Assembly (NCBI GenBank): GCA_964562175.1
Contig: CAZLRV010000007.1
Coordinates: 3,071 to 67,070, forward strand
Direction of reading: 5' to 3'
DNA: 64,000 nucleotides
Source of the DNA: an uncultured Lachnospiraceae bacterium
Lineage (GTDB): Bacteria > Bacillota > Clostridia > Oscillospirales > CAG-272
Shown here: in pieces, positions 27,612-48,194 of the stretch
How the letters are laid out: every line of letters begins with the position of its first letter
Numbering within the stretch: the stretch's first letter is position 1
Position numbers and translations under genes: made by a program
Notes under the pieces: model-generated
Databases searched by the model: none
What the model was told of the DNA's origin: nothing
What the model saw: the letters and a program-made list of their open reading frames with translations, nothing else

Positions 27612-30080
<2,469 letters not shown>

Positions 30081-30125
30081 GCATTAAAACGCGCTGAGCT
30101 TGCGTTGAGTGCGAAATGTATAAAT

Positions 30126-30175
30126 ACACAAAAAATACCTGCATTTTACAAAATTACCGCAGGTAGTTTTTGTGT
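30126..30175 (+). terminator. long hairpin / partial terminator between dnaK and dnaJ
   Basis: 17-bp stem with one mismatch (ACACAAAAAATACCTGC / GCAGGTAGTTTTTGTGT). The 3' arm itself carries a T-run. Confidence 0.5.
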
Positions 30176-30262
30176 ATTGAGGGAAATTGAATTTTATACT
30201 ATACACTTACATATTTGTCATCATATGTAAATTGACGAAATCAAAGTGAAAAGAGATTTGTT

Positions 30263-31399
30263 ATGGCAGAAACCAAACGTGATTATTACGAGGTACTCGG
30301 AGTTGAAAAGGGTGCCTCGGATGCCGACATAAAAAAAGCCTACAGGACGATAGCGAAAAAATATCACCCCGACCTTCATCCGGGCGATGCGGAGTGTGAA
30401 AAAAAATTCAAGGAAGCAAACGAGGCGTATGAGGTGCTTTCCGACAGCGAAAAGCGTTCGAAATACGATCGCTTCGGTCATGCCGGTGTTGACCCCAACG
30501 CTTCATACGGTGGTGGCGGCTTCGGCGGCGGCTTCAGTGATTTCGGCGTGGATCTGGGCGATATATTCGGCTCGTTCTTCGGTTCGTCCTCCGGCTCCGG
30601 CTCAAGACGCGGCTCGGACGGTGCGGATATATTTCAGCGTGTGTATTTGACCTTTGAGGAAGCGGCATTCGGCTGTAAAAAAGAGGTCAAGTACGCAAGG
30701 GTGGAAAAATGTCCCGATTGCTCCGGAAGCGGAGCGGCTAAGGACAGCGAGGTAAAAACGTGCGATAAGTGCGGCGGACGAGGTCAGATAAATACCACTC
30801 AAAGAACATTTTTGGGAATGATGCAATCTACCGTCGTTTGCGACAAGTGCGGCGGCAAGGGCAAAATAATCTCAAGTCCGTGCAAAAACTGCCGCGGCAA
30901 GGGCTATATACGCATAAACAAGAAGATAGAGGTAAACATCCCGGCGGGCATCGACGAGGGACAGCGTTTATCGGTACGCGGTCAGGGCGATGTCAGCACG
31001 AGCGGAATGAATCCGGGCGACCTCATAATAGAGGTATCCGTGCGTCCTCACAGTATGTTTACACGTGACGGAGCGGACATATACTGCGAGGTACCGATAA
31101 CCTTTGTTGAGGCGGCACTTGGAGCGGAGCTTGACATACCGACGCTTGAGGGTAATATCAAGTACAAGATTCCCGAGGGTACTCAAACGGGTACGGAATT
31201 TACCGTTAAAGGCTCCGGCATAGTGAATATAAGCACGGGCAGACGCGGAAATTTGATATTCAGAGTAGTTATCGAAACGCCTAAGAATCTGAGTGATAAA
31301 CAAAAACAGCTTTTGCGTGATTTTGCGCAATCGTGCGGAAAGGGCAATTTCAAGAATCGCCAAACCTTTTTCGATAAAATATTCAAGGATAAAAAATAA
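30263..31399 (+). CDS. dnaJ: co-chaperone DnaJ (J domain, G/F region, four CxxCxGxG zinc motifs)
   Basis: YYEVLGV...KKYHPD, a Gly/Phe-rich linker, and the motifs [24 protein letters not shown] and CKNCRGKG. Confidence 0.95.
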
Positions 31400-32316
31400 T
31401 GGAATACAAACAGATCAAGGCGACGTGTAAGATCGAATATCTCGACGAGGTATGTGCGATAATGAGCATGGTCGATAACGGACTTATGATAGAGGATTAC
31501 AGCGATGCGGACGAAAATCTAAAGACCGTTTACGGCGATCTTCTTGACGAAAAGCTGTTGAATGCAGACAGGACGATAGGCTGTGTAAGCGTATTTATTC
31601 CCGATGAACGCAACCCCGACGAGGCACTACGCTTCATCAAAGACAGATTTTCGGTGCTCGGAATACCTGCGGATATTACGGTAGACGGCGTTGCCGATGA
31701 GGATTGGGCAAGCAGCTGGAAAAAATATTACAAGCCCACACCTATCGGTGAGCATATCGTAGTCGTACCGGCATGGGAAAAATACGATAAAAAGCCCGAT
31801 GAGCTTATAGTAAAAATGGATCCGGGCATGGCTTTCGGCACAGGCTCGCACGAAACGACACGGTTAGTCGGTGCGTTTATAGAAAAGTATCTTAAACGCG
31901 GCGACATGGTGCTTGATGTCGGAACGGGCAGCGGAATACTCGCTATAATCGCCTCCCTGCTCGGTGCAAAGCAAGTCGATGCTTACGATATCGACCCCGT
32001 AGCCGTTAAAGTTGCACGTGAGAATATCAAGGATAACGGCAGGGATAACATAACGTGCGAGGTCTCCGATCTGCTCAAGGACGTAGACAAAGCAAAAAAA
32101 TACGAGCTTATAAGTGCCAATATAGTTGCGGATATTATCATACGCATGAGCGGTGAGCTATCGGAGTACGCCTCGGACGGTTGTATCTTTTTAGCCTCCG
32201 GTATAATAAACAGCCGTGCGGATGAGGTCATTGAGGCTATGAATAAAACACCGTTCAAGCTTATCGACAAGGGAGAGGACAAAGACTGGGTGTGCCTTGC
32301 ATTCGTAAAGGAATGA
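31399..32316 (+). CDS. prmA: ribosomal protein L11 methyltransferase PrmA
   Basis: PGMAFGTGSHETT and the SAM motif VLDVGTGSGILAI. It follows dnaJ with a TAATG overlap, as in many Firmicutes. Confidence 0.9.
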   Translation: MEYKQIKATCKIEYLDEVCAIMSMVDNGLMIEDYSDADENLKTVYGDLLDEKLLNADRTIGCVSVFIPDERNPDEALRFIKDRFSVLGIPADITVDGVADEDWASSWKKYYKPTPIGEHIVVVPAWEKYDKKPDELIVKMDPGMAFGTGSHETTRLVGAFIEKYLKRGDMVLDVGTGSGILAIIASLLGAKQVDAYDIDPVAVKVARENIKDNGRDNITCEVSDLLKDVDKAKKYELISANIVADIIIRMSGELSEYASDGCIFLASGIINSRADEVIEAMNKTPFKLIDKGEDKDWVCLAFVKE

Positions 32317-32361: not shown

Positions 32362-33294
32362 ATGAAAAAAACGATATGCCTGTTGCTTATTCTTACCCTG
32401 CTTTTTTCGCTCGTTTCCTGCGATTTGGGAAACGGCGAGGGGACAAGCACCGACACGGGTGATAATACGTCGAAAACGGTGCAGATAACCGATTTTGACT
32501 CACGTCATTATACGCTCACCTCACCTCCCACACGGATATATTGCGCCTCCCCTATAGCCGCAGAGATAATTTACTCGCTCGGTTCGTCAAAATACGTCAA
32601 GGCGCTCAACGCAAATTGCGAAAAGCTTGACGGCGCACCGATGGGAGCGGAAATATTTGAGATAGATCCGCAGCTGCAATCGAGGCTTGCACTGCTTGAG
32701 ATCGATGCGATGTTTTTTGAGGACGATGTTGACGAGCAGCTACTAAACGCCGTCAACAATGCGGGGATAAAGACCTTTCGCATACGCTCCACGGGCGGCG
32801 TATCTGTTGCACAATCCAATATTCGCCTTATATCCTCTATAATGTTTAAGCAGGACAGCGGCGAAAAGCTCATTTCATCAATGCGTGAGGAAATAGACCA
32901 TGTAAAAAATATGGCACAAGCATTGCTTGAGAGAAAAAAAGTCGTGATAGAGGGCGGTACGCTTTCACAACGTATCGTTTACGGCGGCGATACGCTTGTC
33001 GGTGAGCTGGTAGAGCTGGCAGGTGCCGATAACGCTTACACGACGACCTCCCCCGCCAATGATACGGATATTATCGGCAAAAATCCGGACGTTTTCATAT
33101 CATTGATAAATGATGAAAAATGCACCGTAACGAGCATACGTCAAAGAAACGGTTACGATATGACAAACGCCTACAAGCGCGGACAGGTCTATGTTTTCGA
33201 TTCCTCTCTCTCACTCAGACCCGCACCGTCCATGACCGAAGCTTTGTACGAATTTGCCTACATTTTAGGCACGATAAACGAGGAAAACAAATGA
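32362..33294 (+). CDS. lipoprotein, periplasmic-binding-protein type (siderophore/B12 class-8-like), orphan
   Basis: Lipobox LLFSLVSCD. The layout resembles FecB/BtuF-type binding proteins (PTRIYCASPIAAEIIYSLG). No permease or ATPase is adjacent. Confidence 0.55.
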   Translation: MKKTICLLLILTLLFSLVSCDLGNGEGTSTDTGDNTSKTVQITDFDSRHYTLTSPPTRIYCASPIAAEIIYSLGSSKYVKALNANCEKLDGAPMGAEIFEIDPQLQSRLALLEIDAMFFEDDVDEQLLNAVNNAGIKTFRIRSTGGVSVAQSNIRLISSIMFKQDSGEKLISSMREEIDHVKNMAQALLERKKVVIEGGTLSQRIVYGGDTLVGELVELAGADNAYTTTSPANDTDIIGKNPDVFISLINDEKCTVTSIRQRNGYDMTNAYKRGQVYVFDSSLSLRPAPSMTEALYEFAYILGTINEENK

Positions 33295-34963: not shown

Positions 34964-37900
34964 TTATTGCTCTCTCATTCTTGCCGTAAATGCCGAACAT
35001 TCCTCGGGGGAGAGTGTACCGTCATTGTCTATATCCGCAGCTCTGAAATATCCTTTGCCCTTGCCTATGGAAAGTGCATCGGCTACCAAAATATCTTTTA
35101 TAGTCAACATTCCGTCGCCGTCAACATCGCCGGTAACGATTACGGTATATGTTTCCCTAACGGTTTCGCCTTCATAGCCTATTACCTTGTAGCCGGATGC
35201 GAGTTTGCCGCTCGTTACGACATTACCTGCCGCATCGGTTACCGTGCCGTGGCTCAGTTGAGCCTTAAGAGTCTCGACGGTGGTTCCCGCCTTGATATTG
35301 ACTATATCTTTTTCGGTCTTATCAAGCGTTGCCGTACCGGAGGTTACTTTTATCACCTTGTAGGTCGGCTCTTTTACATTCAGGGTTATCGTTGCAAAAT
35401 CGTAATATGTTTGAAACTTGGTCTCCATTCTCAGCTTGATCGTGTGGTTACCTGCGCTGAGTGAGCCTACCGGAATACCCTCATCGAATGCGTTTACCGT
35501 AGTGCAATTTGTGTAATTCGGCATTGCAATTGACACATCGGAACGGAATTTTCCTTCAAGTGCCGTCCATGCGCCGCCGTCGATGCTGTACTGATAGCCC
35601 GTTACGCCTTCATCGCACAAAGCCCAGCCTCTTACTTGATAATACGTTTCAATATCGGAATCGGAGTTCTTCGTCACGCTGTCGGTTGCCGTGATCACCT
35701 CATTATTGCCCGTCTTGGAAAGAGAATCCAGTGTCGCTGCATATGAGTTGGGATTTATGGTCAGCTTCATGTTCGCTATAGTATAGTAATAGTTCTGCTT
35801 TGTCAAGCCTCTTATCGTTATGTTATGATCGCCCACGGAAAGACCGTTCAAGGGGATATCTTCCTCAAATGCATTTATATCCGTGCAATTCGTATAGGAG
35901 GGTTGAGCTGCGGCAACATCGGCACGATATGAAGCGGTGAGTGTCTTCCATGCGCCGCCGTCAATGTTGTACTGATAGCCGGCTATACCGTCATCGTGAA
36001 CGCTCCAGCCCTTCAGCTTATAGGTCTGACCGACATAAGCCACCTTGCGGAAATCTTCTAAGCTGAATACTGTATTCTTTGCCACCGTTTCCGAGGGAGA
36101 ATCAAATGCGGTCGTAAAGCTCGGGGTCGTTACATTAAGCGTTATTTTGGCTATAACGTAATTGGCACCCTTTTTCGTAAGTCCGCCTATTCTGAGCGTG
36201 TGAGAGCCTATCGAAATATCGCCGAGTGATATATCATCCTCGAATGCGTTAAGCGTCGTGCATTCGGTGTATGAAGAATTAGCCGCGGCAACATCTGCTC
36301 TGTAAGTACCCTTTATTGCCGTCCAATTGCCGTTATCAAGGCTGTATCTGAATTCGGATATACCGTATTCGTGAACGCTCCAGCCCTTTACATGATATGT
36401 CACATCTCCGCGCTTGAGTACATTGTCGGTAAATGTCGATACGATATTCTTGCCACCCTCGCCGTCGGGCACATCAAGCTCAACAACATACGAGGGTGCG
36501 GTAACATTAAGCGTAATTACAGATACGAGATAGTAATCATTTTTCTTTGTCTTTGCACGTATAGCTATATTGTGCGCACCTGTCGCAAGCTCGGCTATAT
36601 CAATACTACCCTCAAACGCATTCAGCGTCGTGCAATTTGTATACGATGACGTTGCCGAGGCAACATCCGCACGGTATTTGCCGTTAAGTGCGGAGAATGC
36701 ATTTCCGTCTACGGAATATTGGTAAGCCGCTACACCGTCGGTATGTACACTCCAGCCCGATACGGTAAGTGTGGAGCTGCTTGCGGTGTTAATGCTTGTG
36801 CTTATGTTTACCGGTGCTTTAGTTGCGCCGCCGGAGGTGGGAACATCTATTGTATTCTGCCACTTCTCGCTGTCCTTGCCTGCGAAAAATCCGCCGGGGT
36901 CGGAATAAGAGGAGGGCATACCAGAATATACGGGAATTGCAAAGGTAAAGGGAAGGTCAAGAAGGTCGGTATTGCGGTAAGCCTCTTGAACCTTACGGCT
37001 CTCGCTCCATGCCGCAGATACGTTCTGCATATACTGACCCCAGAAGTTTCTGCTTGAGGAGGGGTGTACGTTGAACTTTTGATAATATATCGTGTGCTGA
37101 TAGTCGTTTATGTATTTCTCGGCGATCTTTGTCGCACCGCCGCGAAGTGCCGCCTTACGGGTAGTCCAGCCGCCCGTCTTGGCTTCCTGCATACCTGTCA
37201 GGTAAATGTTGAATTTACCCGTACCCGTCGCACCTATGTTAAAATAGTTGTAATAGCCGTTGTACTGTTTAAGTGATGACTCCGAGTAGCCCGATGAGGG
37301 TGCGCCGTTTGTTTTGTTGCTGTAATAAGACCACAGCGTATCGCCGCACTTACCGGAGATAAGCGGGCTTGTACCCGTTCCCTGCTCTTGTCTAACTCTC
37401 GATGCTATCTGCACAGGGCTTATGTTAAGCTCCTTGCCGAGCTGCACGAAGAATTGAGCATACGTCTGGCTGTTTCCGCTGTCGGGAATTACCGCGTGCG
37501 CCATAAAGCTTCCCTGAAGCACCGCCTCAACGACGCTCTCGCTCATTATCGACGAATAGCTGAGCTTTTCAAATTGGAATACGTTATCCTCATTGAGGAA
37601 GTTACGGGGATCCGAAAAATATGCGATACAGGAGTTACTTGCTCTCAGCCATGAGCCGGATTCGACTGCCTGCTGATTTCTTGCATATACGGGATATTTG
37701 TTTCCGTAAGCCTTATCAATAAGGTTACGCTGATAATCGTTTCCCGCAGCCTGCTCCTGCGTTTGCACATAGCTCCACGTATATGTACTTTTCATCGCCG
37801 TTATGTTGTCACACTCAAACACCCAGTTGGGATGTACGTCGTGAAGCTTGCTCAACAACGGAATGTACGAGTCCGGAAAGCCGAGGCTTTTCAAATGCTT

Positions 37901-37999
37901 CTCGTACTCACTGCTTGCCGAGCTTGCCGTAAACACGAAGCAAGACATTATCGTGCATACCGCCAAGGCACAGGCAAGTATCTTTTTGAAGGTTTTCAT
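34964..37999 (-). CDS. secreted GH73-like peptidoglycan hydrolase with four ~125-aa repeats, a beta-rich spacer and a C-terminal type I dockerin
   Basis: There is a signal peptide. The glucosaminidase-like core shows ASRVRQEQGTGTSPLISG and YYNYFNIGATG. Four repeats are marked by GWSVH..G...Y.YS.DG. The dockerin carries two Ca-loop segments, GDVDGDGMLTIKDIL and ADIDNDGTLSPEEC. Confidence 0.7.
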   Translation of the reverse strand: MKTFKKILACALAVCTIMSCFVFTASSASSEYEKHLKSLGFPDSYIPLLSKLHDVHPNWVFECDNITAMKSTYTWSYVQTQEQAAGNDYQRNLIDKAYGNKYPVYARNQQAVESGSWLRASNSCIAYFSDPRNFLNEDNVFQFEKLSYSSIMSESVVEAVLQGSFMAHAVIPDSGNSQTYAQFFVQLGKELNISPVQIASRVRQEQGTGTSPLISGKCGDTLWSYYSNKTNGAPSSGYSESSLKQYNGYYNYFNIGATGTGKFNIYLTGMQEAKTGGWTTRKAALRGGATKIAEKYINDYQHTIYYQKFNVHPSSSRNFWGQYMQNVSAAWSESRKVQEAYRNTDLLDLPFTFAIPVYSGMPSSYSDPGGFFAGKDSEKWQNTIDVPTSGGATKAPVNISTSINTASSSTLTVSGWSVHTDGVAAYQYSVDGNAFSALNGKYRADVASATSSYTNCTTLNAFEGSIDIAELATGAHNIAIRAKTKKNDYYLVSVITLNVTAPSYVVELDVPDGEGGKNIVSTFTDNVLKRGDVTYHVKGWSVHEYGISEFRYSLDNGNWTAIKGTYRADVAAANSSYTECTTLNAFEDDISLGDISIGSHTLRIGGLTKKGANYVIAKITLNVTTPSFTTAFDSPSETVAKNTVFSLEDFRKVAYVGQTYKLKGWSVHDDGIAGYQYNIDGGAWKTLTASYRADVAAAQPSYTNCTDINAFEEDIPLNGLSVGDHNITIRGLTKQNYYYTIANMKLTINPNSYAATLDSLSKTGNNEVITATDSVTKNSDSDIETYYQVRGWALCDEGVTGYQYSIDGGAWTALEGKFRSDVSIAMPNYTNCTTVNAFDEGIPVGSLSAGNHTIKLRMETKFQTYYDFATITLNVKEPTYKVIKVTSGTATLDKTEKDIVNIKAGTTVETLKAQLSHGTVTDAAGNVVTSGKLASGYKVIGYEGETVRETYTVIVTGDVDGDGMLTIKDILVADALSIGKGKGYFRAADIDNDGTLSPEECSAFTARMREQ
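35361..36820 (-). repeat. four tandem coding repeats (~375 bp each) inside the GH73-dockerin gene (approximate bounds)
   Basis: The GWSVH/GWALC codons recur at about 36746-36760, 36371-36385, 35996-36010 and 35615-35629. Each is followed by YRADVA...YT.CT..NAFE. Confidence 0.7.
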
Positions 38000-38283: not shown

Positions 38284-38328
38284 ACGAAAAATATTATCCC
38301 GTTTACTCGTTATGAGTAAACGGGATAA
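38284..38328 (-). terminator. rho-independent terminator of the giant surface-protein gene
   Basis: 15-bp perfect stem TTATCCCGTTTACTC / GAGTAAACGGGATAA, followed on the minus strand by TATTTTT. Confidence 0.75.
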
Positions 38329-38350
38329 CTTATTTGTGCTGTGCTTTGAC

Positions 38351-41300
38351 TTATTTTGCGAAATGCTTTCTCTTTTTGCCGTAAGCTACTGTACCTGCCA
38401 ATGCGCCGCCGCTGACAACGAGCAGTGCAAACCAAATTACCATATGGCTGTTATCGCCGGTTTCGGGAACTTTGCTATCGCTCGGCTTTGAAACGATGGT
38501 GTCCGCAAGGGTGATCTCGTTGTTGCAATCCTTGTCACCGAAGTACTTGTTGCAATCCTCACAGTGCCAATACTCAATGTTGCCGTCGGCTTCGGCGGTT
38601 GCCGCCTTTGCTTCGACGTGCTTCAGCTTTCTGTGATTTTTGCCGTCACGTTCCCCGTACTTCTCACCGCAGATACCGCACACCGCTTCTTCGTTGCAGC
38701 TTGCTTCTCCGCCGCTGTGAGAATTTACGTTCTGACCGCAATAGTCGCAAGTATGCTTGCCCTCTGCCGCCTCATGCACTCCCATAGGTGCGCCGCAATC
38801 ATCGCATTTGTGGTCTTTGTTTTTGTCCTCGCACTGACTTGCATTCTTGCCGCAGTAATCACAGGTATGCTTGCCCTCTGCCGCTTCATGCACTCCCATA
38901 GGTGCGTCACAGTCGTCACATTTGTGGTCTTTGTTCTCGTCCGTACACGTCGATGCCGTCTTGCCACAGTAATCGCAAGTATGCTTGCCCTCTGCCGCCT
39001 CATGCACTCCCATAGGTGCGCCGCAGTCATCGCATTTGTGGTCTTTGTTTTTGTCCTCGCACTGACTTGCATTCTCGCCGCAGTAGTCGCAAGTATGCTT
39101 GCCCTCTGCCGCTTCATGCACTCCCATAGGTGCGCCGCAATCATCGCATTTGTGGTCTTTGTTTTTGTCTATACACGTCGATACCGTCTTACCGCAGTAA
39201 TCGCAAGTATGCTTGCCCTCTGCCGCTTCATGCACTCCCATGGTTGCTCCGCACACGTCGCACTCATGGTTCTTGTTTTTGTCTATACACGTTGATACCG
39301 TCTTACCGCAGTAATCGCAAGTATGCTTGCCCTCTGCCGCTTCATGCACTCCCATGGTTGCTCCGCACACGTCGCACTCATGGTTCTTGTTTTTATCTAT
39401 ACACGTTGATGCTGTCTCACCGCAGTAATCGCACTTATGGTCTTTGCTTCCGTCAACACAATCCGTTTCAATGAAACGAGAATTTGCTTTGTCGTAGTGG
39501 TATACTTTTTCTTCACCGTCTCCGATCTTCACCGTATGACGTCCGTCTGTCAGATATGCGTAAAGATTTGTGTCTGCCGCATCTCCCGCCGTATGGTTGG
39601 ACGGGGTATGTTTTACTCCGTCAATGTATACATCCTTACCGCTCGGATTCGCTATAACTAACAGATATACCTCTTTAGCTCCCTCGCCCTTTCCGTTTTT
39701 CGGAATGCACACGTTAAGCTTACGTGACGGTTCGCTGCTGCTTTCTCCTCCCGTTCCGATGAGAGGTGTTATTCTGCCGTTGGTATTCACCGGTTCGGCA
39801 ATACGTATCGAGCCGCCCGAAATGACTACTTCGATCTGCGCATTATTGTAGTATCCGGCTCCGATTCCCGATCCGTTCTTCGACGTAACAGTAATCGTTC
39901 CTCCCGAAATCGTGATGTTTTCGGGTTCGGTGGCGGCACCTCCGATTGCGGATGCATTATCTCCGCCGTTGGCATTGACGACTCCTCCCGTGATCGTGAT
40001 ACCGTCGATAATATCGCTGTTAAATCCTCCGCCGATGCCGGCTCCGAAATTTCCGCCGGTTGCGGTGACTTTTCCGCCCGATATGGTAATGTCTTCGATA
40101 TTGCTTTTATATCCTCCGCCGATTCCGGCTCCGGAGTTTCCTCCGAGTGCGGTAACGTCTCCGCCCTTTATCGTGATGTTCGACACGCTGCCCCAATTTC
40201 CGCCGCCGATTCCGGCACAGTTGACTCCGCCCTGCGCCTTAACGATTCCGCCTTCGATGGTGATATTCGATGCGATGAGCTTATCATGCGAGTATTCGGC
40301 GACGCCGTAACCGCTTCCGATTCCGGCTCCCCAGGCTCCGCCGATCGCGGTAACATTTCCGCCTTTTATCGTGATGTTCGATGCGCCTCCGCCGAGGTAG
40401 TTTTCGCCGTTGACATCACCGTAATTATAACCTCCGCCGATTCCGGCAGAGTAGATTCCTCCCTGTGCAACTATCGTTCCGTCAAGAATGATGATGTTGC
40501 TCGTATTGCAACGGTAGCCGCTTCCGATTCCGGCTCCGCAATTTTCTCCCGTTGCGTTGAGCGTTCCACGTCCCGTGATCGTCAGCTTTCCGCTTCCGCT
40601 TCCTTTCTGAAGTGCCGCAACTCCGAAGCCGCCACGGAGGGTGTTGACGCTTCCGTTTGCAAGCGTTATCGTTACATTCTCTCCGTTTCCGTCCGCAACT
40701 GCGATCGGTGCATAGCCGACAGTACTGTTTTCAGCATTTCCCGTTTCGGAAGTGTCGATATTCACTCCCGAAAGTGTGATATTCGCATTCACTCCCGCCG
40801 CCGTCACGATTCTATCCGCCGTCCTCGCCACTCCGTTTCTCATACCGACAGTCATAGACTTGTCGCTGAGTATCGTGAGTACTCCGAGAGCGTAGCTGTA
40901 GTCTGTTCCCTCAACTGCCGCCTCCGATGTGTTTGACGTGATCGTCAGGTCACGTTCACGGTCAAATTTTCCGTTTTTATAGCTGTATACATACTCGATT
41001 CCGTCCTCTCCCACCTTCACCGTGTGACTGCCGGTTGTCGTAAGCCACAGATAGAGGTTGGTGTCTTTCGCATCTGCCGCCGTGTGGTTCGACGGAATGT
41101 ATTTCACTCCGTCAACATACACGTCATCTCCGCGCGGATTCTCAATGATAAGCGATGCGACAGGGTTTTCCGATGCACCGACAACAGGTTCGCTTACCGT
41201 TCCCGCCTTGACAGAGCCGCCGAGAATGTGTATCTTACCTGCCATGTTTTTGCCTTGGCAACCGATATCATCTTGAACTCCTCCGCCTATTGCGGTGACC

Positions 41301-43804
41301 GTTCCCGAGTATATGTATATATTCTTTGCAACGTAGGCGCTGCCGATGCCGGGAGAGTTGTCACCGACAGCTGTCACAACAGGACCGTTTTTATCCACAC
41401 CCGTTTCGTCACCTATTACGATATTATCGCAAACTCCGCTGTCGCCGGAACCGATTCCCGGTGCATTTTCACCGCCGTATGCGGTGATATGACCTTTCAG
41501 TATCGTTATGTTTTGGGCATCAACATCGTTGCCGATTCCGGGTGCTCCGCTTCCGCCGCGTACCGTAAGCGATACTTTTGCGTTCGGAGATGTGAGTTCT
41601 TCGGTGATGACAAGAGCCCAGGATTCAATAGATGGCGTTTGAATACCCGCACAGTTCTTGCCGCTTATCAGGCGGTTTTCATATGTACCGGTGCCCGAGT
41701 TGGTTATCGTCAGCGTGACGGCGCCGTGACCGCCACGTTCTATCATGAAAGCCGCTTTGTTATCAAACTCCGACACGTCGATGTAGACGTTGCACAGCCT
41801 GATGTTCGCAATCACATCCTTCGCCACGACGATCCTGTCGGTCGCCGCCTCGGCGGGATTCTTATTCGATATCGTCATCGTCTTGCTCGACAGTATTGTC
41901 AGCACTCCGTCTCCGCTGTAGCTGTAGTCGGTTCCTTCGACTATCCCGTCGCCCGTGATGCTCAGCTCTCGCGTCTTGAACTCCGCATAGACATCTACCC
42001 ACGGGTCCCCACCTACGATGCCGATCGCATCGGCTATGTCACTCAGCTTCGCATTGCGACCGATGACTACCTTCTTGCCGTCCTTTTCATAGTACCAATG
42101 CTTGAACGATCTGCCGGATATTTGCGGCTCATCGACAAGCTCATATATTTTTGCGTCGGGTGAAACATGTGCGATCTCACGATATGTACTGCTCTCTTTC
42201 TTGAAACACACGAACGTTCTCTCGTCGTCGCTTCCGCAGTCTTTGCACTTGAAATTCTCAAAGTTGTGTGTCGTCTTGTTTTGTGCAAGACCGCATCCCG
42301 ACACCGTACACCTATCCTCGTGATAACGGTATCCGTCATTTCCACTGCAGGGCACACATTTCATGGTATCGGTAGTTATCTTACCGTCCACTATATGAAA
42401 GTGTACCGCATTTCCCTGATTATCTTTCAGCACGTCTCCCTCGGCAAGATAAAGATACAGATTTGTATCGCCGTCGATTGCCTTGCTGTTGCGCGGTGTA
42501 TACTCAACGCCGTTTACAAGATACGCCTTTTCATCCGGGTTTGAGATAGTCATGAGCGCAACGCTCTGACCTTTTGCGTTCACCGCCTGACAACCGTGCT
42601 TCGGCGCATTCACCGAGCCACCTGTGATCTTTATGTTCGTGCAGTCGCCGGAATTGCCATCTTCTTTCGTACCACTGCCGATGTCGTCGGCCTTATAATT
42701 TTTGGTGGTAGCACCAACAGCCTTCACAGTGCCGCCCGAGATGGTAACATTGTCGACATTTCCCGGTTTAGAGAATCTCGTAGAACCACCGCTACCTATA
42801 CCCGCGCCAGCATTAAAAGGATCATTATCATAGGCTGAACCAAAAGCCCGAACAACGCCGCCCGAGATGGTAATGCCGTCTACATTTGTACTATGTCCGT
42901 TCGCATCATTTTGCAGACCTGAACCGATGCCGGCACCGCCAAAGTTGCCGTAAGCTGTAACGTCGCCGTCTTTTATTATAATATTTTTTGCTTCGCCATT
43001 CATTCCGCCTCCGATACCGGCTGATTTTTTACCGCCCGTTGCTTTAACGGTACCGCCTTCGATGGTGATGCCGTCTACACGACCACTATCTCCACAGCCG
43101 ATGCCGGCAGCATTTTCACCACCATTCGCTATGACGGTGCCGCTTTTTATGACAATATTCGAGGCGGTACCATCGAGGCAACTGCCGATACCGGGAGCAT
43201 AATTGCCTCCCGTAGCATAGATCGTCGGACCGTCAATATATATGTTGCTTACATTTCTATTATACGGTCCACCGCCAATACCGGCACCACCTGCTACACT
43301 GGCGTCTGAAGATTCGCCGGTTGTATAGAGCGTGCCATTGCCGATGAACGTCAGCGTTCCGGTATATTCGCCAATAGCTCCGTACAAGATACCCGGGTAG
43401 TTCCGTCCGGCGACGCGGTTGACCGTACCTTCTACAACCTCTATTGTGACGTTAGCCGTGCTGTTTGCCGCAACTTTTATAGCAGCGGTACCGATAATAT
43501 TTTGCGTGTTAATGTTGACGCCCTCAAGATTGAGCCTGACATCGATGTTCGCATTTATCTCGATCCTCCAGCTGGTCGCCGTGTTCGGATCCTTGTTTTT
43601 AACGGAGAACAAACCGTGGTTGATGATTTTGATGACCTTGTTCGTCTCGTCCCGAGTCCATCCGCTGCCCTCATTTTCGTCACTTTTGAAGTAGAAATCT
43701 CCCACTTCTACATAGCCTGCCGCACGCACCATACGTGCCACAAGCGGCAGGGAGCACAGCAGCATACACAAAGCAAGCACCATACTTAAATGCCGTTTTT
43801 TCAT
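38351..43804 (-). CDS. 1817-aa cell-wall-anchored surface protein: signal peptide, three parallel-beta-helix-like modules, Cys-rich linker, six zinc-knuckle repeats, VPETG sortase signal
   Basis: Signal peptide MKKRHLSMVLALCMLLCSLPLVA. There are dozens of G..(A/S)GIG(G/S)G turns. The module end motif DGV.Y.P.N....D.DTNLY.YL occurs three times. The 38-aa HTCDYCG...C...CD.CG repeats come next. The C-terminus has VPETG, a hydrophobic helix and KKRKH. RBS GGAGG. Confidence 0.85.
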   Translation of the reverse strand: MKKRHLSMVLALCMLLCSLPLVARMVRAAGYVEVGDFYFKSDENEGSGWTRDETNKVIKIINHGLFSVKNKDPNTATSWRIEINANIDVRLNLEGVNINTQNIIGTAAIKVAANSTANVTIEVVEGTVNRVAGRNYPGILYGAIGEYTGTLTFIGNGTLYTTGESSDASVAGGAGIGGGPYNRNVSNIYIDGPTIYATGGNYAPGIGSCLDGTASNIVIKSGTVIANGGENAAGIGCGDSGRVDGITIEGGTVKATGGKKSAGIGGGMNGEAKNIIIKDGDVTAYGNFGGAGIGSGLQNDANGHSTNVDGITISGGVVRAFGSAYDNDPFNAGAGIGSGGSTRFSKPGNVDNVTISGGTVKAVGATTKNYKADDIGSGTKEDGNSGDCTNIKITGGSVNAPKHGCQAVNAKGQSVALMTISNPDEKAYLVNGVEYTPRNSKAIDGDTNLYLYLAEGDVLKDNQGNAVHFHIVDGKITTDTMKCVPCSGNDGYRYHEDRCTVSGCGLAQNKTTHNFENFKCKDCGSDDERTFVCFKKESSTYREIAHVSPDAKIYELVDEPQISGRSFKHWYYEKDGKKVVIGRNAKLSDIADAIGIVGGDPWVDVYAEFKTRELSITGDGIVEGTDYSYSGDGVLTILSSKTMTISNKNPAEAATDRIVVAKDVIANIRLCNVYIDVSEFDNKAAFMIERGGHGAVTLTITNSGTGTYENRLISGKNCAGIQTPSIESWALVITEELTSPNAKVSLTVRGGSGAPGIGNDVDAQNITILKGHITAYGGENAPGIGSGDSGVCDNIVIGDETGVDKNGPVVTAVGDNSPGIGSAYVAKNIYIYSGTVTAIGGGVQDDIGCQGKNMAGKIHILGGSVKAGTVSEPVVGASENPVASLIIENPRGDDVYVDGVKYIPSNHTAADAKDTNLYLWLTTTGSHTVKVGEDGIEYVYSYKNGKFDRERDLTITSNTSEAAVEGTDYSYALGVLTILSDKSMTVGMRNGVARTADRIVTAAGVNANITLSGVNIDTSETGNAENSTVGYAPIAVADGNGENVTITLANGSVNTLRGGFGVAALQKGSGSGKLTITGRGTLNATGENCGAGIGSGYRCNTSNIIILDGTIVAQGGIYSAGIGGGYNYGDVNGENYLGGGASNITIKGGNVTAIGGAWGAGIGSGYGVAEYSHDKLIASNITIEGGIVKAQGGVNCAGIGGGNWGSVSNITIKGGDVTALGGNSGAGIGGGYKSNIEDITISGGKVTATGGNFGAGIGGGFNSDIIDGITITGGVVNANGGDNASAIGGAATEPENITISGGTITVTSKNGSGIGAGYYNNAQIEVVISGGSIRIAEPVNTNGRITPLIGTGGESSSEPSRKLNVCIPKNGKGEGAKEVYLLVIANPSGKDVYIDGVKHTPSNHTAGDAADTNLYAYLTDGRHTVKIGDGEEKVYHYDKANSRFIETDCVDGSKDHKCDYCGETASTCIDKNKNHECDVCGATMGVHEAAEGKHTCDYCGKTVSTCIDKNKNHECDVCGATMGVHEAAEGKHTCDYCGKTVSTCIDKNKDHKCDDCGAPMGVHEAAEGKHTCDYCGENASQCEDKNKDHKCDDCGAPMGVHEAAEGKHTCDYCGKTASTCTDENKDHKCDDCDAPMGVHEAAEGKHTCDYCGKNASQCEDKNKDHKCDDCGAPMGVHEAAEGKHTCDYCGQNVNSHSGGEASCNEEAVCGICGEKYGERDGKNHRKLKHVEAKAATAEADGNIEYWHCEDCNKYFGDKDCNNEITLADTIVSKPSDSKVPETGDNSHMVIWFALLVVSGGALAGTVAYGKKRKHFAK
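38735..39441 (-). repeat. tandem 114-bp in-frame repeat array (about 6.2 copies)
   Basis: CATGCACTCCCAT recurs at 38773, 38887, 39001, 39115, 39229 and 39343, an exact 114-nt period. The units are a mosaic of shared sub-blocks. Confidence 0.9.
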
Positions 43805-43845
43805 AAGAACATACCTCCATATTTTTTAGTGGTGAATGAAAAATG

Positions 43846-43886: not shown

Positions 43887-44600
43887 CTAAGTTCGGGATC
43901 TTGCTGTCGTGTTAATGTCGGAAAAATCGCTTTCAAAGTAATTTCCCAGCTGTTCAAACAACTGTTGCATAACGCCGTCGGCTAATTTGTTTATGTCAAG
44001 GCTGCGAACAAAGGTAAGTATCTGTTCGATTTCTTCTTCACCGACACGGTAAATGCGCAAGGAGGCGGTTAAGAACCTCTCTATCTTTCTGTGCAACGGA
44101 AAATGCACATCACAGGGCTTTGCCATATAGCCTCGCATCAGTGCCGCAGAGCCAATCTCCATTTCGTAAAACTCGCTTTCCTCGTAATCGGGAAAACGGT
44201 CACCGAAAATGGCTTTCAGCTCCCTCGCCATATTCTGATAGATGTATTCCACCGTATCCGGCATGGTGTAAGCCTCGGTGTACAGCTCACGCAGATTTTC
44301 GTTCCGCTCCGTCAGAACGATTTGAATGACTGTTTCCACCGCATAAGTATATGTGGGCGGAAGTGATGCTTCTGCGGATTGCTTTGCCGCACTGAACTGA
44401 CCGGAAAACATAAGCTTAACCAGCTCGGCAATCAAGCCCTCCTTGTTGCGGAAAAAGTTCTGCACACTGCAAACAGCTACACCTGCTGTGCTTGCAATTT
44501 GCTTCATGGTAGTGTCCCGATAGCCCTGCTCCAACAGCAGTCTCGCACTGACTGCAAGAATATGATTTTTGGTCGGCATACTGGATTTTCGTATTGCCAA
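43887..44600 (-). CDS. TetR/AcrR-family transcriptional regulator
   Basis: N-terminal HTH (ILAVSARLLLEQGYRDTTMKQIASTAGVAVCSVQNFF). TTG start preceded by GGAGG at 9 nt; an alternative ATG is at 44579. Confidence 0.8.
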   Translation of the reverse strand: MAIRKSSMPTKNHILAVSARLLLEQGYRDTTMKQIASTAGVAVCSVQNFFRNKEGLIAELVKLMFSGQFSAAKQSAEASLPPTYTYAVETVIQIVLTERNENLRELYTEAYTMPDTVEYIYQNMARELKAIFGDRFPDYEESEFYEMEIGSAALMRGYMAKPCDVHFPLHRKIERFLTASLRIYRVGEEEIEQILTFVRSLDINKLADGVMQQLFEQLGNYFESDFSDINTTARSRT

Positions 44601-45548: not shown

Positions 45549-48194
45549 ATGAGAATCGTTAATCTTACGTGTGAGCATATGCCATGCACAGGTGATTTTG
45601 CTCACTGTATCGACAGTGTACATCCCGTATTCGGCTTTGCCGTTGAGGACAGGGACGGGGTAGATGTTGACTATTACAAAATAGTTGTCGCATCGAGTCC
45701 GGAGAAGCTCACCAACCGTAATGCGGACATATGGGACAGTGGGATCGTGCGCGATTCCGATACGACCTGCATTCGTTACACGGGAAAGGAGCTTGAAAGC
45801 CGCAAGACGTATTATTTTGCCGTATATGTTGCCGCAGGAGACAAAAAGGTAAGAAGCGATATAGGAAGCTTCACCACGGGCTTGCTTTATTCCTCGGATT
45901 GGAAATGCGGATTTATAGGTCTTAACAGGGAGTTTTTGCCCAAATGTGCGGGACCGGAGGCGGACATATCCGGTCGTCCTGCGCCGTATTTCCGCAAGTG
46001 CTTTACCGTTGCGTCGGGACTTGTTTCAGCCAAGGCATATGCAAGTGCGTTCGGAATATACGAGCTTTACGTAAACGGTGAGGATGCGGGTGCTTACAGG
46101 CTTGCTCCGGAATGGACGGAATACAAAAAATCACTTCAATATCAATATTACGATATTACCGACAAGCTGGTCGAGGGTGAAAACTGTATCGGTGCAATTG
46201 TCGGCGACGGCTGGTTCAAGAGCAATTTGAATGCGGTCGGTCGTGACCAATACGGTGAGGACGTTGCTTTTATTATGAATCTCGCCCTTGAATATTCCGA
46301 CGGTTCGGTCGATTATATCGTTACGGACAAGAGCTGGAAGGCTTCAAGCGGCGGCGTGCTTTATTCCGACAATCAAAACGGCGAATATTTCGATGCACGC
46401 CTTGAGGATGAAAACTGGTGCCGTGCTGGCTTTGACGATTCGTCATGGCACGATGCGATACATTCCATGCCGCTTGAATGCACGTGGACGAGAATGAAAG
46501 CATCGATCGGTATGCAGGTAAAGGAGAATATCATTCTTTCGGCTCAGAGCGTTACCGTTGACAAAAACGGCTCTGTAATAGTCGATATGGGTCAAAATAT
46601 GGTCGGAAACGCTTCGGTGCTGATACACGGAGCTGTCCCCGGCACGACTGTAACGGTACGTCACGGTGAAATGCTCAAGGACGACGGCACACTTTACACC
46701 GAAAATCTGCGTTCGGCACTTCAAACGGACACTTACATTTGCCGAGGCGGCGAGGAAAAATACGAGCCTCGTTTTACGTTCCACGGCTTCAGATTTTTGG
46801 AGATAACGGGACTCGGCTACATACCTCAAAAGGAAGATATCAAGGGACACGTTATATTCTCCGCTTGCACTCGCACCGGCTACGTTCAAACGGAGTCGCC
46901 TCTTGTAAACAAGCTGTTTGAAAATGCGCTGTGGGGTCAACGCGGAAATTTTGTGGGAATTCCCACCGACTGCCCTCAGCGTGACGAGCGTCTCGGTTGG
47001 ACGGGCGATACGCAGATATTCTGCCGTTCGGCGTGCTACAATATGGATTGCTACGGCTTTTTCGATAAATATATGGAGGATCTGCGTGAATCGCAAAAGC
47101 CTAACGGTTCGGTTACCGATATCGTTCCGATGATACGTCACAGCTCGGGCAAGGGTCCCGATCTTGTCGGAAACGGAAATGCGGCATGGGGCGATGCGGT
47201 ATTCGTAATTCCCTACACCGTTTACTCGATGTACGGTGATATTGCAATAATAGCCCGCTCATACGACAGCATGAGCAGATATTTCAAGTACCTGCTCGGC
47301 ACAACAACAGGTCTGCTTCGTCCCGCTCACGGTTACGGAGATTGGCTCTCTATCGATGACACGACACCGCTTGATGTTTTGTCAACGGCTTATTTCGCAT
47401 ACGATGCTTATATCATGGCAAAGTGCGCAAAGCTGCTTTGTCGCGATTACGATTACGAATACTACTCGGATATGTTTGAGCGTATAAGAGAAGCGTGGTG
47501 TGATGAATACGTTTCGGCTGATGTTACGATAAAGGGCGATACGCAATGCTGTTATGTTTTGGCTCTTAAGATGAAGCTTTTGCCCACCGAGCTTGAAAAG
47601 GCGGCGGCGGAGCATCTCGTAAGAACGATACGACGCAAGGATTATCATCTTTCCACGGGCTTTGTCGGTGTTTCGTATCTGTTGCCCGTGCTTTGCGATC
47701 ACGGTCATTCCGATATCGCATACAGGCTTCTTTTGAACGATACTTATCCCTCTTGGGGATATTCGATAAAGAACGGCGCCACGACTATTTGGGAGAGATG
47801 GAACTCTTATACGAAGGAAAACGGCTTCGGCGATGTCGGAATGAACTCGTTCAACCATTATTCTCTCGGCAGTGTCGTTGAATGGATGTACGCTTATATG
47901 GGCGGTATCAAGCCGTATAAGCCCGGCTTTAAGGAGTTTTTCGTAAGACCCTATTTCAACGAAGCCGTAGGCGAGACCAAGGTCACATACGACAGCATTT
48001 CGGGTAAGATAATTTCAAGCTGGAAAAAGAGTGAGGACGGCTATATACTCAAGCTCACCGTGCCGTCAAATACAAAGGCTCATCTTATGTTCCCACCCTC
48101 AAGGGTCGAGGTGCTTTCGGGCAAGCGTTGCAAGGCAAAAAGCAACAGTATTATCTGCGGCGGCGGAGAATATAAGTTTTTGATAAAAGAATAA
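45549..48194 (+). CDS. alpha-L-rhamnosidase (GH78), no signal peptide
   Basis: The hallmark segment GIPTDCPQRDERLGWTGDTQIF, the six-hairpin catalytic region (GDWLSIDD, WERWNSY), and a length of 881 aa. Confidence 0.9.
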   Translation: MRIVNLTCEHMPCTGDFAHCIDSVHPVFGFAVEDRDGVDVDYYKIVVASSPEKLTNRNADIWDSGIVRDSDTTCIRYTGKELESRKTYYFAVYVAAGDKKVRSDIGSFTTGLLYSSDWKCGFIGLNREFLPKCAGPEADISGRPAPYFRKCFTVASGLVSAKAYASAFGIYELYVNGEDAGAYRLAPEWTEYKKSLQYQYYDITDKLVEGENCIGAIVGDGWFKSNLNAVGRDQYGEDVAFIMNLALEYSDGSVDYIVTDKSWKASSGGVLYSDNQNGEYFDARLEDENWCRAGFDDSSWHDAIHSMPLECTWTRMKASIGMQVKENIILSAQSVTVDKNGSVIVDMGQNMVGNASVLIHGAVPGTTVTVRHGEMLKDDGTLYTENLRSALQTDTYICRGGEEKYEPRFTFHGFRFLEITGLGYIPQKEDIKGHVIFSACTRTGYVQTESPLVNKLFENALWGQRGNFVGIPTDCPQRDERLGWTGDTQIFCRSACYNMDCYGFFDKYMEDLRESQKPNGSVTDIVPMIRHSSGKGPDLVGNGNAAWGDAVFVIPYTVYSMYGDIAIIARSYDSMSRYFKYLLGTTTGLLRPAHGYGDWLSIDDTTPLDVLSTAYFAYDAYIMAKCAKLLCRDYDYEYYSDMFERIREAWCDEYVSADVTIKGDTQCCYVLALKMKLLPTELEKAAAEHLVRTIRRKDYHLSTGFVGVSYLLPVLCDHGHSDIAYRLLLNDTYPSWGYSIKNGATTIWERWNSYTKENGFGDVGMNSFNHYSLGSVVEWMYAYMGGIKPYKPGFKEFFVRPYFNEAVGETKVTYDSISGKIISSWKKSEDGYILKLTVPSNTKAHLMFPPSRVEVLSGKRCKAKSNSIICGGGEYKFLIKE

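Follow-up and report, generated by a model that had tools for sequence, protein, structure and literature searches.

A predicted sortase-anchored surface protein with three beta-solenoid modules on a stalk of tandem 19-residue Cys/His units in an uncultured Lachnospiraceae bacterium

Architecture of the surface protein

Most surface proteins of the Clostridia that dominate gut and rumen lack annotation. We analyzed a stretch of 64,000 nucleotides (nt) from an uncultured Lachnospiraceae bacterium (assembly GCA_964562175.1, contig CAZLRV010000007.1, positions 3,071 to 67,070; hereafter the window), which harbors on its minus strand a gene for a giant surface protein that forms a singleton cluster at 90% identity. 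An earlier reading of the bare sequence, referred to here as the original prediction, had described a secreted, sortase-type anchored protein with three solenoids on a Cys/His-rich stalk, and this overall architecture holds. Its parts, however, required redrawing in several places, and the stalk proved to be built from a unit half as long as proposed. The gene and its product are laid out as follows.

38351..43804, minus strand: complete coding sequence with ATG start, 1817 amino acids (aa) (open reading frame (ORF) list and translation)
43814..43818, minus strand: ribosome-binding site GGAGG, 10 nt 5' of the ATG (read from the sequence)
43721..43804, minus strand: putative signal peptide, aa 1 to ~28, KKRH followed by a hydrophobic core and ARMVRA/AG (read from the translation)
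42395..43720, minus strand: beta-solenoid module 1, aa 29-470, with the closing beta-sandwich segment NGVEYTPRN...DTNLYLYL (Beta_helix_3, BLASTP)
41960..42394, minus strand: inter-module linker, aa 471-615, a Cys/His-rich part followed by a segment of ~80 aa (Cys positions)
40940..41959, minus strand: beta-solenoid module 2, aa 616-955, a shortened copy with three clear GIG turns (BLASTP)
39470..40939, minus strand: beta-solenoid module 3, aa 956-1445, with N-cap, ~9 turns and a small C-terminal beta-sandwich (AlphaFold2, Pfam)
38696..39460, minus strand: stalk, aa 1449-1703, 13 tandem 19-aa units, equal to six 38-aa A/B pairs and one terminal unit
38489..38695, minus strand: terminal Cys-rich domain, aa 1704-1772, CGICG ... 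GNIEYWHCEDCNKYF, zinc-ribbon-like
38354..38470, minus strand: predicted cell-wall sorting signal, aa 1779-1817, VPETG, hydrophobic helix and KKRKHFAK (read from the translation)
38293..38329, minus strand: intrinsic-terminator-like hairpin with a 16-bp stem and a T-run, 22 nt 3' of the stop codon (consensus scan)

Both ends of the protein carry the signals that had been noticed originally. The N-terminus, MKKRHLSMVLALCMLLCSLPLVARMVRAAG, reads as a typical putative signal peptide, with KKRH ahead of a hydrophobic core, and relatives bearing the same stalk begin with the same type of N-terminus (MKKRILSILL.LCMVLC..P...FA). At the C-terminus, VPETG (aa 1779-1783) is followed by a hydrophobic stretch (aa 1788-1808) and the basic tail KKRKHFAK. 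All elements of LPXTG-type sortase-anchored proteins, an xPxTG motif, a hydrophobic helix, a basic tail and an N-terminal signal peptide, are present, from which we infer sortase anchoring at VPETG. The sorting pentapeptide of the query starts with V, not L. Relatives end in SPQTG, SPKTG, PPKTG, VPRTG or TPETG, followed by a transmembrane (TM) helix and a K/R tail; we take these pentapeptides to be of the (S/P)PxTG class that clostridial sortase B recognizes. Four plus-strand ORFs within the locus (38564-39295, 39912-40310, 40286-40936 and 41024-42163; 132-379 aa) were rejected as genes, since they are of low complexity and mirror the repeats on the coding strand.

Three homologous beta-solenoid modules

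The three modules are mutually homologous in BLASTP comparisons (modules 1 and 3, 34% identity over 490 columns, E=2e-60; modules 2 and 3, 38% identity, E=1e-31; modules 1 and 2, 32% identity, E=1e-22). The proposed count of three is therefore retained, whereas the proposed size of 430-450 aa for each does not apply to module 2, which spans only ~310-340 aa. Pfam Beta_helix_3 (PF18889) matches the whole protein in 16 stretches with 164.8 bits against a cut-off of 27 (E=2e-49). Searched on their own, modules 1 and 3 score 85.8 bits (6 stretches) and 99.5 bits (8 stretches), and module 2 scores 20.5 bits, below the cut-off. AlphaFold2, given 20 family members, returned a model of module 3 with a mean confidence (pLDDT) of 88 and a predicted template modeling score (pTM) of 0.91; this model displays an N-terminal cap (EGTDYSY..GVLTILS), ~9 turns of ~29 residues and a C-terminal beta-sandwich of ~65 residues. 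Family match and model together bear out the beta-helix reading, with one correction: successive GIG motifs lie ~29 aa apart (some 37-43), in agreement with the periodicity of the model, rather than the 20-24 aa per turn originally given. The motifs singled out at module boundaries were recovered, EGTDYSY..GVLTILS.K.MT at the start of modules 2 and 3 (aa 622 and 965) and the closing segment (D/N)GV.(Y/H).P.N....D.DTNLY.(Y/W)L in all three (aa 431, 898 and 1395), followed in modules 2 and 3 by H.VK.G. This closing segment is the C-terminal beta-sandwich of the module 3 model. Foldseek likened the sandwich to small CBM-like or PEGA-like domains, a likeness that was set aside.

In a database search, the modules proved to have more than 3,000 relatives at 27-41% identity, the few named ones stemming from Oscillospiraceae or Ruminiclostridium metagenome bins, and many of them also contain dockerin, Big_2, FN3 or CHB_HEX_C domains. 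Searching PDB chains with the whole protein sequence yielded chance matches only (asparaginyl endopeptidase, E=0.3). A profile of the module family (20 module sequences), in contrast, matches 4PEU_A with E=8.7e-11 along the N-cap and the first turns. On PF14262 the 4PEU fragment reaches 190 bits, and the 4PEU/4PHB sequence is the founding member of this Pfam family, Cthe_2159, described as 'carbohydrate-binding domain-containing protein'. Some close relatives of the query modules (P0002) pass both the PF14262 and the PF18889 models. Judged by profile comparison, the modules are distant relatives of Cthe_2159, not members of its family. Like Cthe_2159 of Clostridium thermocellum, a polysaccharide-lyase-like, carbohydrate-binding right-handed beta-helix, they share an alignable cap and first turns; unlike it, their turns carry the Beta_helix_3 GxGIGGG loop with a ~29-aa period and an added C-terminal beta-sandwich, and three of them sit on a wall-anchored stalk where Cthe_2159 is a single free domain.

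Column conservation in the module family is dominated by small and aliphatic residues: 117 columns are conserved at 80% or more, including 40 Gly, 22 Ile and 13 Ala, and the conserved positions are occupied by G, I, A, L, V and T. The solenoid body lacks a conserved cluster of acidic or basic residues, and neither Pfam nor NCBIfam gave a match to a polysaccharide lyase (PL), glycoside hydrolase (GH) or carbohydrate esterase (CE) family. For these two reasons we favor non-catalytic binding, and the modules are most likely glycan-binding (adhesin) surfaces for plant fiber or other polysaccharides; the original caution that their function would be a matter of inference was well placed.

Two other views of the modules have to be weighed against this. 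They might be enzymes (polysaccharide lyases, glycoside hydrolases or epimerases of the pectate-lyase superfamily), which would turn the protein into a wall-anchored depolymerase. The weak structural neighbors of module 3 in the PDB comprise tailspikes, NosD, alginate epimerases, pertactin and a Lactobacillus reuteri serine-rich repeat protein (SRRP), and the tailspike depolymerases, galacturonidase, alginate epimerases or lyases and NosD among the weak PDB and BFVD neighbors are in keeping with such a role, as are a GH78 rhamnosidase encoded next door and the dockerins of relatives, which are found likewise in cellulosomal enzymes. Yet the missing PL, GH or CE match is joined by a TM-score of only ~0.2 with no PDB match at E<0.01, and the conserved columns are structural, with no cluster of Asp, Glu, Arg or Lys in the solenoid body. 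Cthe_2159, the sole solved relative, reportedly binds polysaccharide, in keeping with the carbohydrate-binding name of its Pfam family, and we know of no lyase activity found for it. We therefore regard an enzymatic role as unlikely.

A purely passive role, with the whole protein acting as a spacer, coat or surface layer and the solenoids as stalk elements that lack a specific ligand-binding tip, appears rather unlikely, too. Beta_helix_3 has been listed among the stalk domains not found with known adhesive domains (PMC8286594), and the three reiterated modules consist of very regular, Gly-rich repeats whose surface chemistry is hardly conserved. Each module is nevertheless a closed unit with its own N-cap and C-terminal beta-sandwich, the loops between GIGGG and the next strand vary from turn to turn, as expected of a binding face, and relatives carry the modules in N-terminal, distal position, ahead of recognized stalk domains and anchors. 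The query resembles the Firmicutes fibrillar-adhesin-like proteins of the same survey (PMC8286594) in its Beta_helix_3 repeat and in being a large multidomain surface protein, and departs from the stalk view in that its modules are closed distal units and a different element forms the stalk. A further point of comparison for glycan-binding solenoids is the L. reuteri SRRP (5NY0), likewise a wall-anchored adhesin of a gut Firmicute and a weak Foldseek match at rank 28; it shows no sequence relationship to the query (E=1.5), and differs in having a single solenoid on a stalk of glycosylated Ser-rich repeats. Its ligand-binding region is a right-handed beta-solenoid that binds pectin-like polyanions.

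A stalk of 19-residue Cys/His units and a terminal domain

Between module 3 and the sorting signal, Tandem Repeats Finder identified a 114-nt unit in 6.1 copies with 87% match (38736-39433), which corresponds to the six 38-aa Cys/His repeats seen originally. The true unit, however, is only 19 aa long and present in 13 copies: 13 CxxC motifs follow each other at a spacing of exactly 19 aa from aa 1458 to aa 1686, each within the pattern C-x2-C-x6-[H/C]-x6-[H/C], and two diverged units make up each 38-aa repeat, the A-units with Cys and the B-units with His at position 11. This tetrad takes the place of the classical CxxCG zinc-ribbon knuckles that had been proposed. The ligand set C1, C4, [H/C]11 and [H/C]18 is complete in 13/13 units of the query and in 90% of the 405 units (89 arrays) of relatives, and although the six repeats have diverged to 76-96.5% pairwise nucleotide identity, every ligand residue is kept. 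In a unit logo (292 distinct units from 118 proteins), C1 and C4 are conserved to 100% and His(-1), two residues ahead of the first Cys, to 95%, while position 11 is split between His (53%) and Cys (40%). In 60/89 arrays, Cys fills position 18 even of the last unit, after which no CxxC comes at +19; this suggests that position 18 goes with the knuckle ahead of it, and it is on this logic at the array ends that ligands were assigned to putative sites.

No Pfam or NCBIfam model covers the stalk repeats, and no named family spans the whole protein including its Cys repeats. The Zn_ribbon_RRN7 (PF11781) label was discarded: its 45.9 whole-protein bits add up from six matches that are partial (positions 6-28 of the 32 in the model), and two 38-aa repeats alone remain at 22.3 bits, below the threshold of 27.1. 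The same two-repeat segment weakly matches 48 different zinc-finger families, and the zf-BED, zf-C2H2 and TRASH labels on stalk relatives in Pfam are generic knuckle matches as well, sub-threshold on single repeats. Our literature searches found no description of the 19-aa unit, only papers on a bacterial IgA protease being relevant.

That protease was found by profile-sequence search and not by structure search. Positions 96-152 of the stalk profile, which fall into the terminal domain, match residues 844-900 of 9QA6_A with E=7.2e-8, and the terminal domain is, on this match, homologous to ZBD1 (subdomain I) of the IgA protease of Thomasclavelia ramosa. It is nearly invariant among relatives and was modeled by AlphaFold2 with pLDDT >90. 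Foldseek of the stalk/tail model against the PDB gave nothing significant, the low-confidence repeat part having probably spoiled the query. ZBD1 and ZBD2 of the protease are AI-predicted elongated domains with sites of 2His+2Cys or 3Cys+1His that lie ahead of SPQTG, a TM helix and a tail of charged residues, and their zinc sites are 'pending experimental validation' (PMC12237041). ZBD1 measures ~110 Angstrom over 129 residues (PMC12237041), and small-angle X-ray scattering shows it, in isolation, as a fully extended rod (PMC12415215). Both 2025 papers regard it as a possibly novel, predicted zinc-binding 'periscope' stalk fold with putative structural zinc (PMC12237041, PMC12415215).

The query shares with ZBD1/ZBD2 (CTD2/CTD4) of this M64 protease (Q9AES2, 9QA6) a Cys/His-rich stalk directly before the sorting signal, and predicted Cys/His tetrads, complete in all of its units, in place of disulfides. 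It differs in that the protease has 5 predicted C-terminal sites in three-stranded-sheet subdomains of ~35-55 aa, interleaved with other domains, whereas the query has its 13 units head-to-tail, each too short for such sheets; its passenger, moreover, consists of beta-solenoids rather than a metallopeptidase. A second Cys/His-rich segment lies in the linker between modules 1 and 2, where seven Cys extend from C483 to C533 ('YHEDRCTVSGCG...H...CKDCG'). By eye, its motif 'H..RCTVSGCG' resembles 'HWHECTVAGCG' of ZBD1, and 'H..RCT..GCG' resembles 'THTRTCTVDGCS' of stalk relatives. The Cys-rich character of the linker had been recognized originally, together with a Listeria/Bacteroides-type repeat that we do not retain: the 'SFKHWYY' stretch matches Flg_new (PF09479) only in part, with 14.4 bits against 27 (E=0.042).

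The stalk cassette is widespread among gut Clostridia

The original statement that the stalk matches no known architecture proved too strong. Using aa 1445-1777 as query, 1,307 relatives were retrieved, and a stalk profile run against 1.84 billion cluster representatives matched at least 13,114 clusters (50% identity) at E<=1e-3 and 1,493 at E<=1e-30. Scanning species-representative genomes gave at least 599 matching stretches, with at least 578 loci confirmed as relatives; the loci listed are almost all from gut Clostridia (Ruminococcaceae, Oscillospiraceae, Lachnospiraceae, R. bromii, Blautia, Christensenellaceae). Cultured bacteria with the cassette include Ruminococcus bromii, Blautia sp. 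Marseille-P3087 and Yeguia hominis. One stalk-bearing locus (L059) falls outside the Clostridia, in an uncultured Coriobacteriaceae bin (Actinomycetota), and could reflect horizontal transfer or a binning error.

In a typical relative the C-terminus runs from the array through the conserved domain to SPxTG, TM helix and K/R tail, so that the cassette usually stands just before the sorting signal, and the passengers ahead of it vary (Listeria-Bacteroides repeats, LRR and others). Arrays contain 0-16 units in the genome loci and up to 32 in the top representative matches; the 13 units of the query are the longest array among the top 120 stalk matches. Both the variation in unit number and the place beside the sorting signal speak for a role as stalk. 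Alternation of A- and B-units occurs elsewhere, for instance in P0287, and 10 of the 119 best beta-helix relatives possess stalk units or the terminal domain. In view of the varied passengers, the range of array lengths and the other combinations of beta-helix and stalk, the architecture is, by its sequence record, a recurrent combination of mobile parts and not a one-off.

The closest full-length relatives, P0012 (1986 aa) and P0014 (1815 aa), have the same modules and stalk-type CxxC units (two at 19-aa spacing in P0014) and end in a type-I dockerin. To judge from sorting signal and dockerin ends, wall and cellulosome-like scaffold are alternative places of display for one and the same passenger. 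In P0241 (2220 aa), a terminal-type domain of ~50 aa, 'H.L.K..A.AATC...GNI.YW.C..C...F.D', is repeated ~30 times in tandem and therefore also serves as a long stalk repeat itself; 32 matched stretches were counted in P0241 and 37 in P0242 (2497 aa). P0241 ends, by eye, in SLH-like repeats instead of a sortase signal.

The cassette is hence not unique, the stalk being abundant and a related domain having entered the literature in 2025. Two things remain new here: the recognition of the 19-aa tetrad unit as a tandem module in its own right, for which there is no database family, and the pairing of a stalk of such units with Cthe_2159-like solenoids. The locus offers a clear example of a C-terminal cassette in which an array of Cys/His units is followed by a zinc-ribbon-like domain and an SPxTG signal, and which databases mislabel with eukaryotic or archaeal zinc-finger names (RRN7, zf-BED, zf-C2H2, TRASH). 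Once it is defined as a family, many adhesins, enzymes and scaffold proteins could be annotated better.

Predicted metal sites and proposed display at the cell surface

Three properties of the stalk units argue for metal sites rather than disulfides. His and Cys interchange at a fixed position, a behavior typical of metal ligands that does not suit a disulfide partner; each 38-aa repeat has 5 Cys, which cannot all pair within it; and about half of the relatives' units have only two Cys together with two His. The metal would most likely be zinc.

A different use of such metal sites, as a surface metal store, scavenger or sensor comparable to polyhistidine-triad proteins, or as a zinc switch of stalk length or stiffness, strikes us as quite improbable. 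One chain would offer ~14 predicted sites at the cell surface, and the authors of one study put forward the idea that the function of the related domain may rely on, or be regulated by, environmental zinc (PMC12415215). Full four-ligand Cys/His coordination, however, is typical of tight structural and not of exchangeable sites (PMC12415215), the cassette is joined to many unrelated passengers with variable copy number, as stalks are, and no zinc-uptake genes were identified among the neighboring ORFs scanned, which include a binding protein of the Peripla_BP_2 type. Least probable of all, and by our estimate very unlikely, are metal-free modules held together by disulfides, as in EGF or granulin. 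Cys in extracellular proteins such as this one usually forms disulfides, and AlphaFold gives the units, whose metal sites are predicted only, no confident metal-site geometry, but the odd Cys count, the 53% His against 40% Cys at one ligand position with a 95% conserved His(-1), units that allow at most one local CxxC disulfide, the strictly anaerobic gut hosts and a related IgA protease that shows no disulfides despite 24 Cys (PMC12237041) all speak against them.

Taken together, we consider it probable that the protein is a sortase-anchored display of glycan-binding solenoids on a zinc-stapled stalk. It would be secreted and linked covalently to peptidoglycan by sortase at VPETG. The Cys/His region of ~320 residues beside the wall would form a thin rod of 13 units and the zinc-ribbon-like terminal domain, in which the CxxC pair of each unit, a His/Cys 7 residues later and another His/Cys 7 further on would constitute one tetrahedral structural site, most likely for zinc. 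As the predicted sites follow each other with a single residue between them, metal may staple a core-less chain into an extended spacer that crosses the wall and projects the three solenoid modules outward; scaling from ZBD1 gives a stalk length of ~27 nm, as a rough extrapolation. Metal might in this way replace disulfides and hydrophobic cores, which would be unreliable for the extracellular stalk of an anaerobe. The modules belong to the Beta_helix_3/Cthe_2159-like lineage. Each starts with an N-cap, continues with 3 to 9 turns of ~29 aa that carry a G-x-G-I-G-G-G loop, and closes with a small beta-sandwich, and they would bind polysaccharide.

The G5-E stalks of staphylococcal SasG/Aap and the 'Periscope Proteins' are comparable to such a rod, being sortase-anchored, core-less repeats with zinc (predicted here) and variable copy number. 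Periscope Proteins have repeats of high DNA identity whose number varies between strains; the repeats of the query are 76-96.5% identical as DNA, and the 0-32 units were counted across relatives. The zinc sites of Aap, in the summary given in PMC12415215, are built without Cys, include acidic residues and bridge two protomers, whereas those of the query are predicted to be fully coordinated by Cys/His within one chain, in a 19-aa unit.

Several results weigh against the anchored, zinc-stapled display. On the side of anchoring, the curated LPXTG model NF033073, the sole NCBIfam match at E<=1, scores 14 bits against a cut-off of 48, and no sortase gene was found among the 20 neighboring ORFs of the window that were scanned. 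On the side of the modules, PF14262 gives no match at E<=1, be it with the whole protein or module by module; the PDB neighbors that Foldseek retrieves for module 3 are weak, generic right-handed beta-helices (best E=0.015, TM-score ~0.2), with similar weak generic matches in the viral library BFVD; and Monzon et al. 2021 treat Beta_helix_3 as a stalk domain of unknown function and not as an adhesive one (PMC8286594). As for the stalk, AlphaFold2 confidence is low over the 19-aa units (pLDDT 40-55), the fold of the units and the assignment of ligands to sites, C1/C4/X11/X18 or alternatively H(-1)/C1/C4/X11, are predicted and not established, the units match the IgA protease with 6.5 bits only (E=73, not significant), and the zinc sites are a prediction for the query and all relatives, the IgA protease included.

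If zinc binding is true, the cassette would allow rigid stalks to be built outside the cell under anaerobic conditions by a route other than disulfides and Ig-like cores, and could couple surface display to metal availability. We add, as a conjecture that we hold to be doubtful, that the 19-residue unit may be the smallest known tandem extracellular metal-binding module, and that arrays of 2-32 units may serve thousands of surface proteins of gut Clostridia as a zinc-stapled, adjustable, wall-spanning stalk with zinc-dependent reach. Were this so, stalks would fold only with metal, and withholding of zinc by the host in the gut could collapse or expose them. The beta-solenoid modules, in turn, are abundant uncharacterized relatives of Cthe_2159 and candidates for adhesion to fibers or glycans.

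Genomic neighborhood

Three genes flank the surface-protein gene.

43887..44600, minus strand: TetR-family regulator (Pfam TetR_N, E=7e-11), upstream of the surface-protein gene across an 82-nt gap
45549-48194, plus strand: GH78 alpha-L-rhamnosidase, complete (five Pfam domains, E down to 6e-117), divergent from the TetR/surface-protein pair
34964-37999, minus strand: secreted protein of 1011 aa, next gene downstream, with a C-terminal dockerin-like pair of EF-hand loops

A consensus scan found a promoter-like site near the TetR gene (44667-44639) and no terminator in the gap between the TetR and surface-protein genes; the regulator may possibly be co-transcribed with the surface-protein gene or regulate it. 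The GH78 neighbor hints at a pectin or rhamnogalacturonan setting. The secreted 1011-aa protein has four internal repeats of ~130 aa ('GWSVH..G...YQYS.DG..W...YRADVA...YTNCT..NAF'), matches no Pfam family beyond weak EF-hand matches and is likewise a singleton cluster at 90% identity. The GH78 and dockerin-bearing neighbors, along with the dockerins in relatives, lend weak support to a plant-fiber setting. Further downstream lies a dnaK-dnaJ-prmA housekeeping cluster (28251-32316, plus strand), which shows the DNA to be chromosomal; its DnaK is a singleton at 90% identity in a collection of 15 billion proteins and marks the organism as an undescribed species. The window also harbors a binding protein of the Peripla_BP_2 type (32362-33294).

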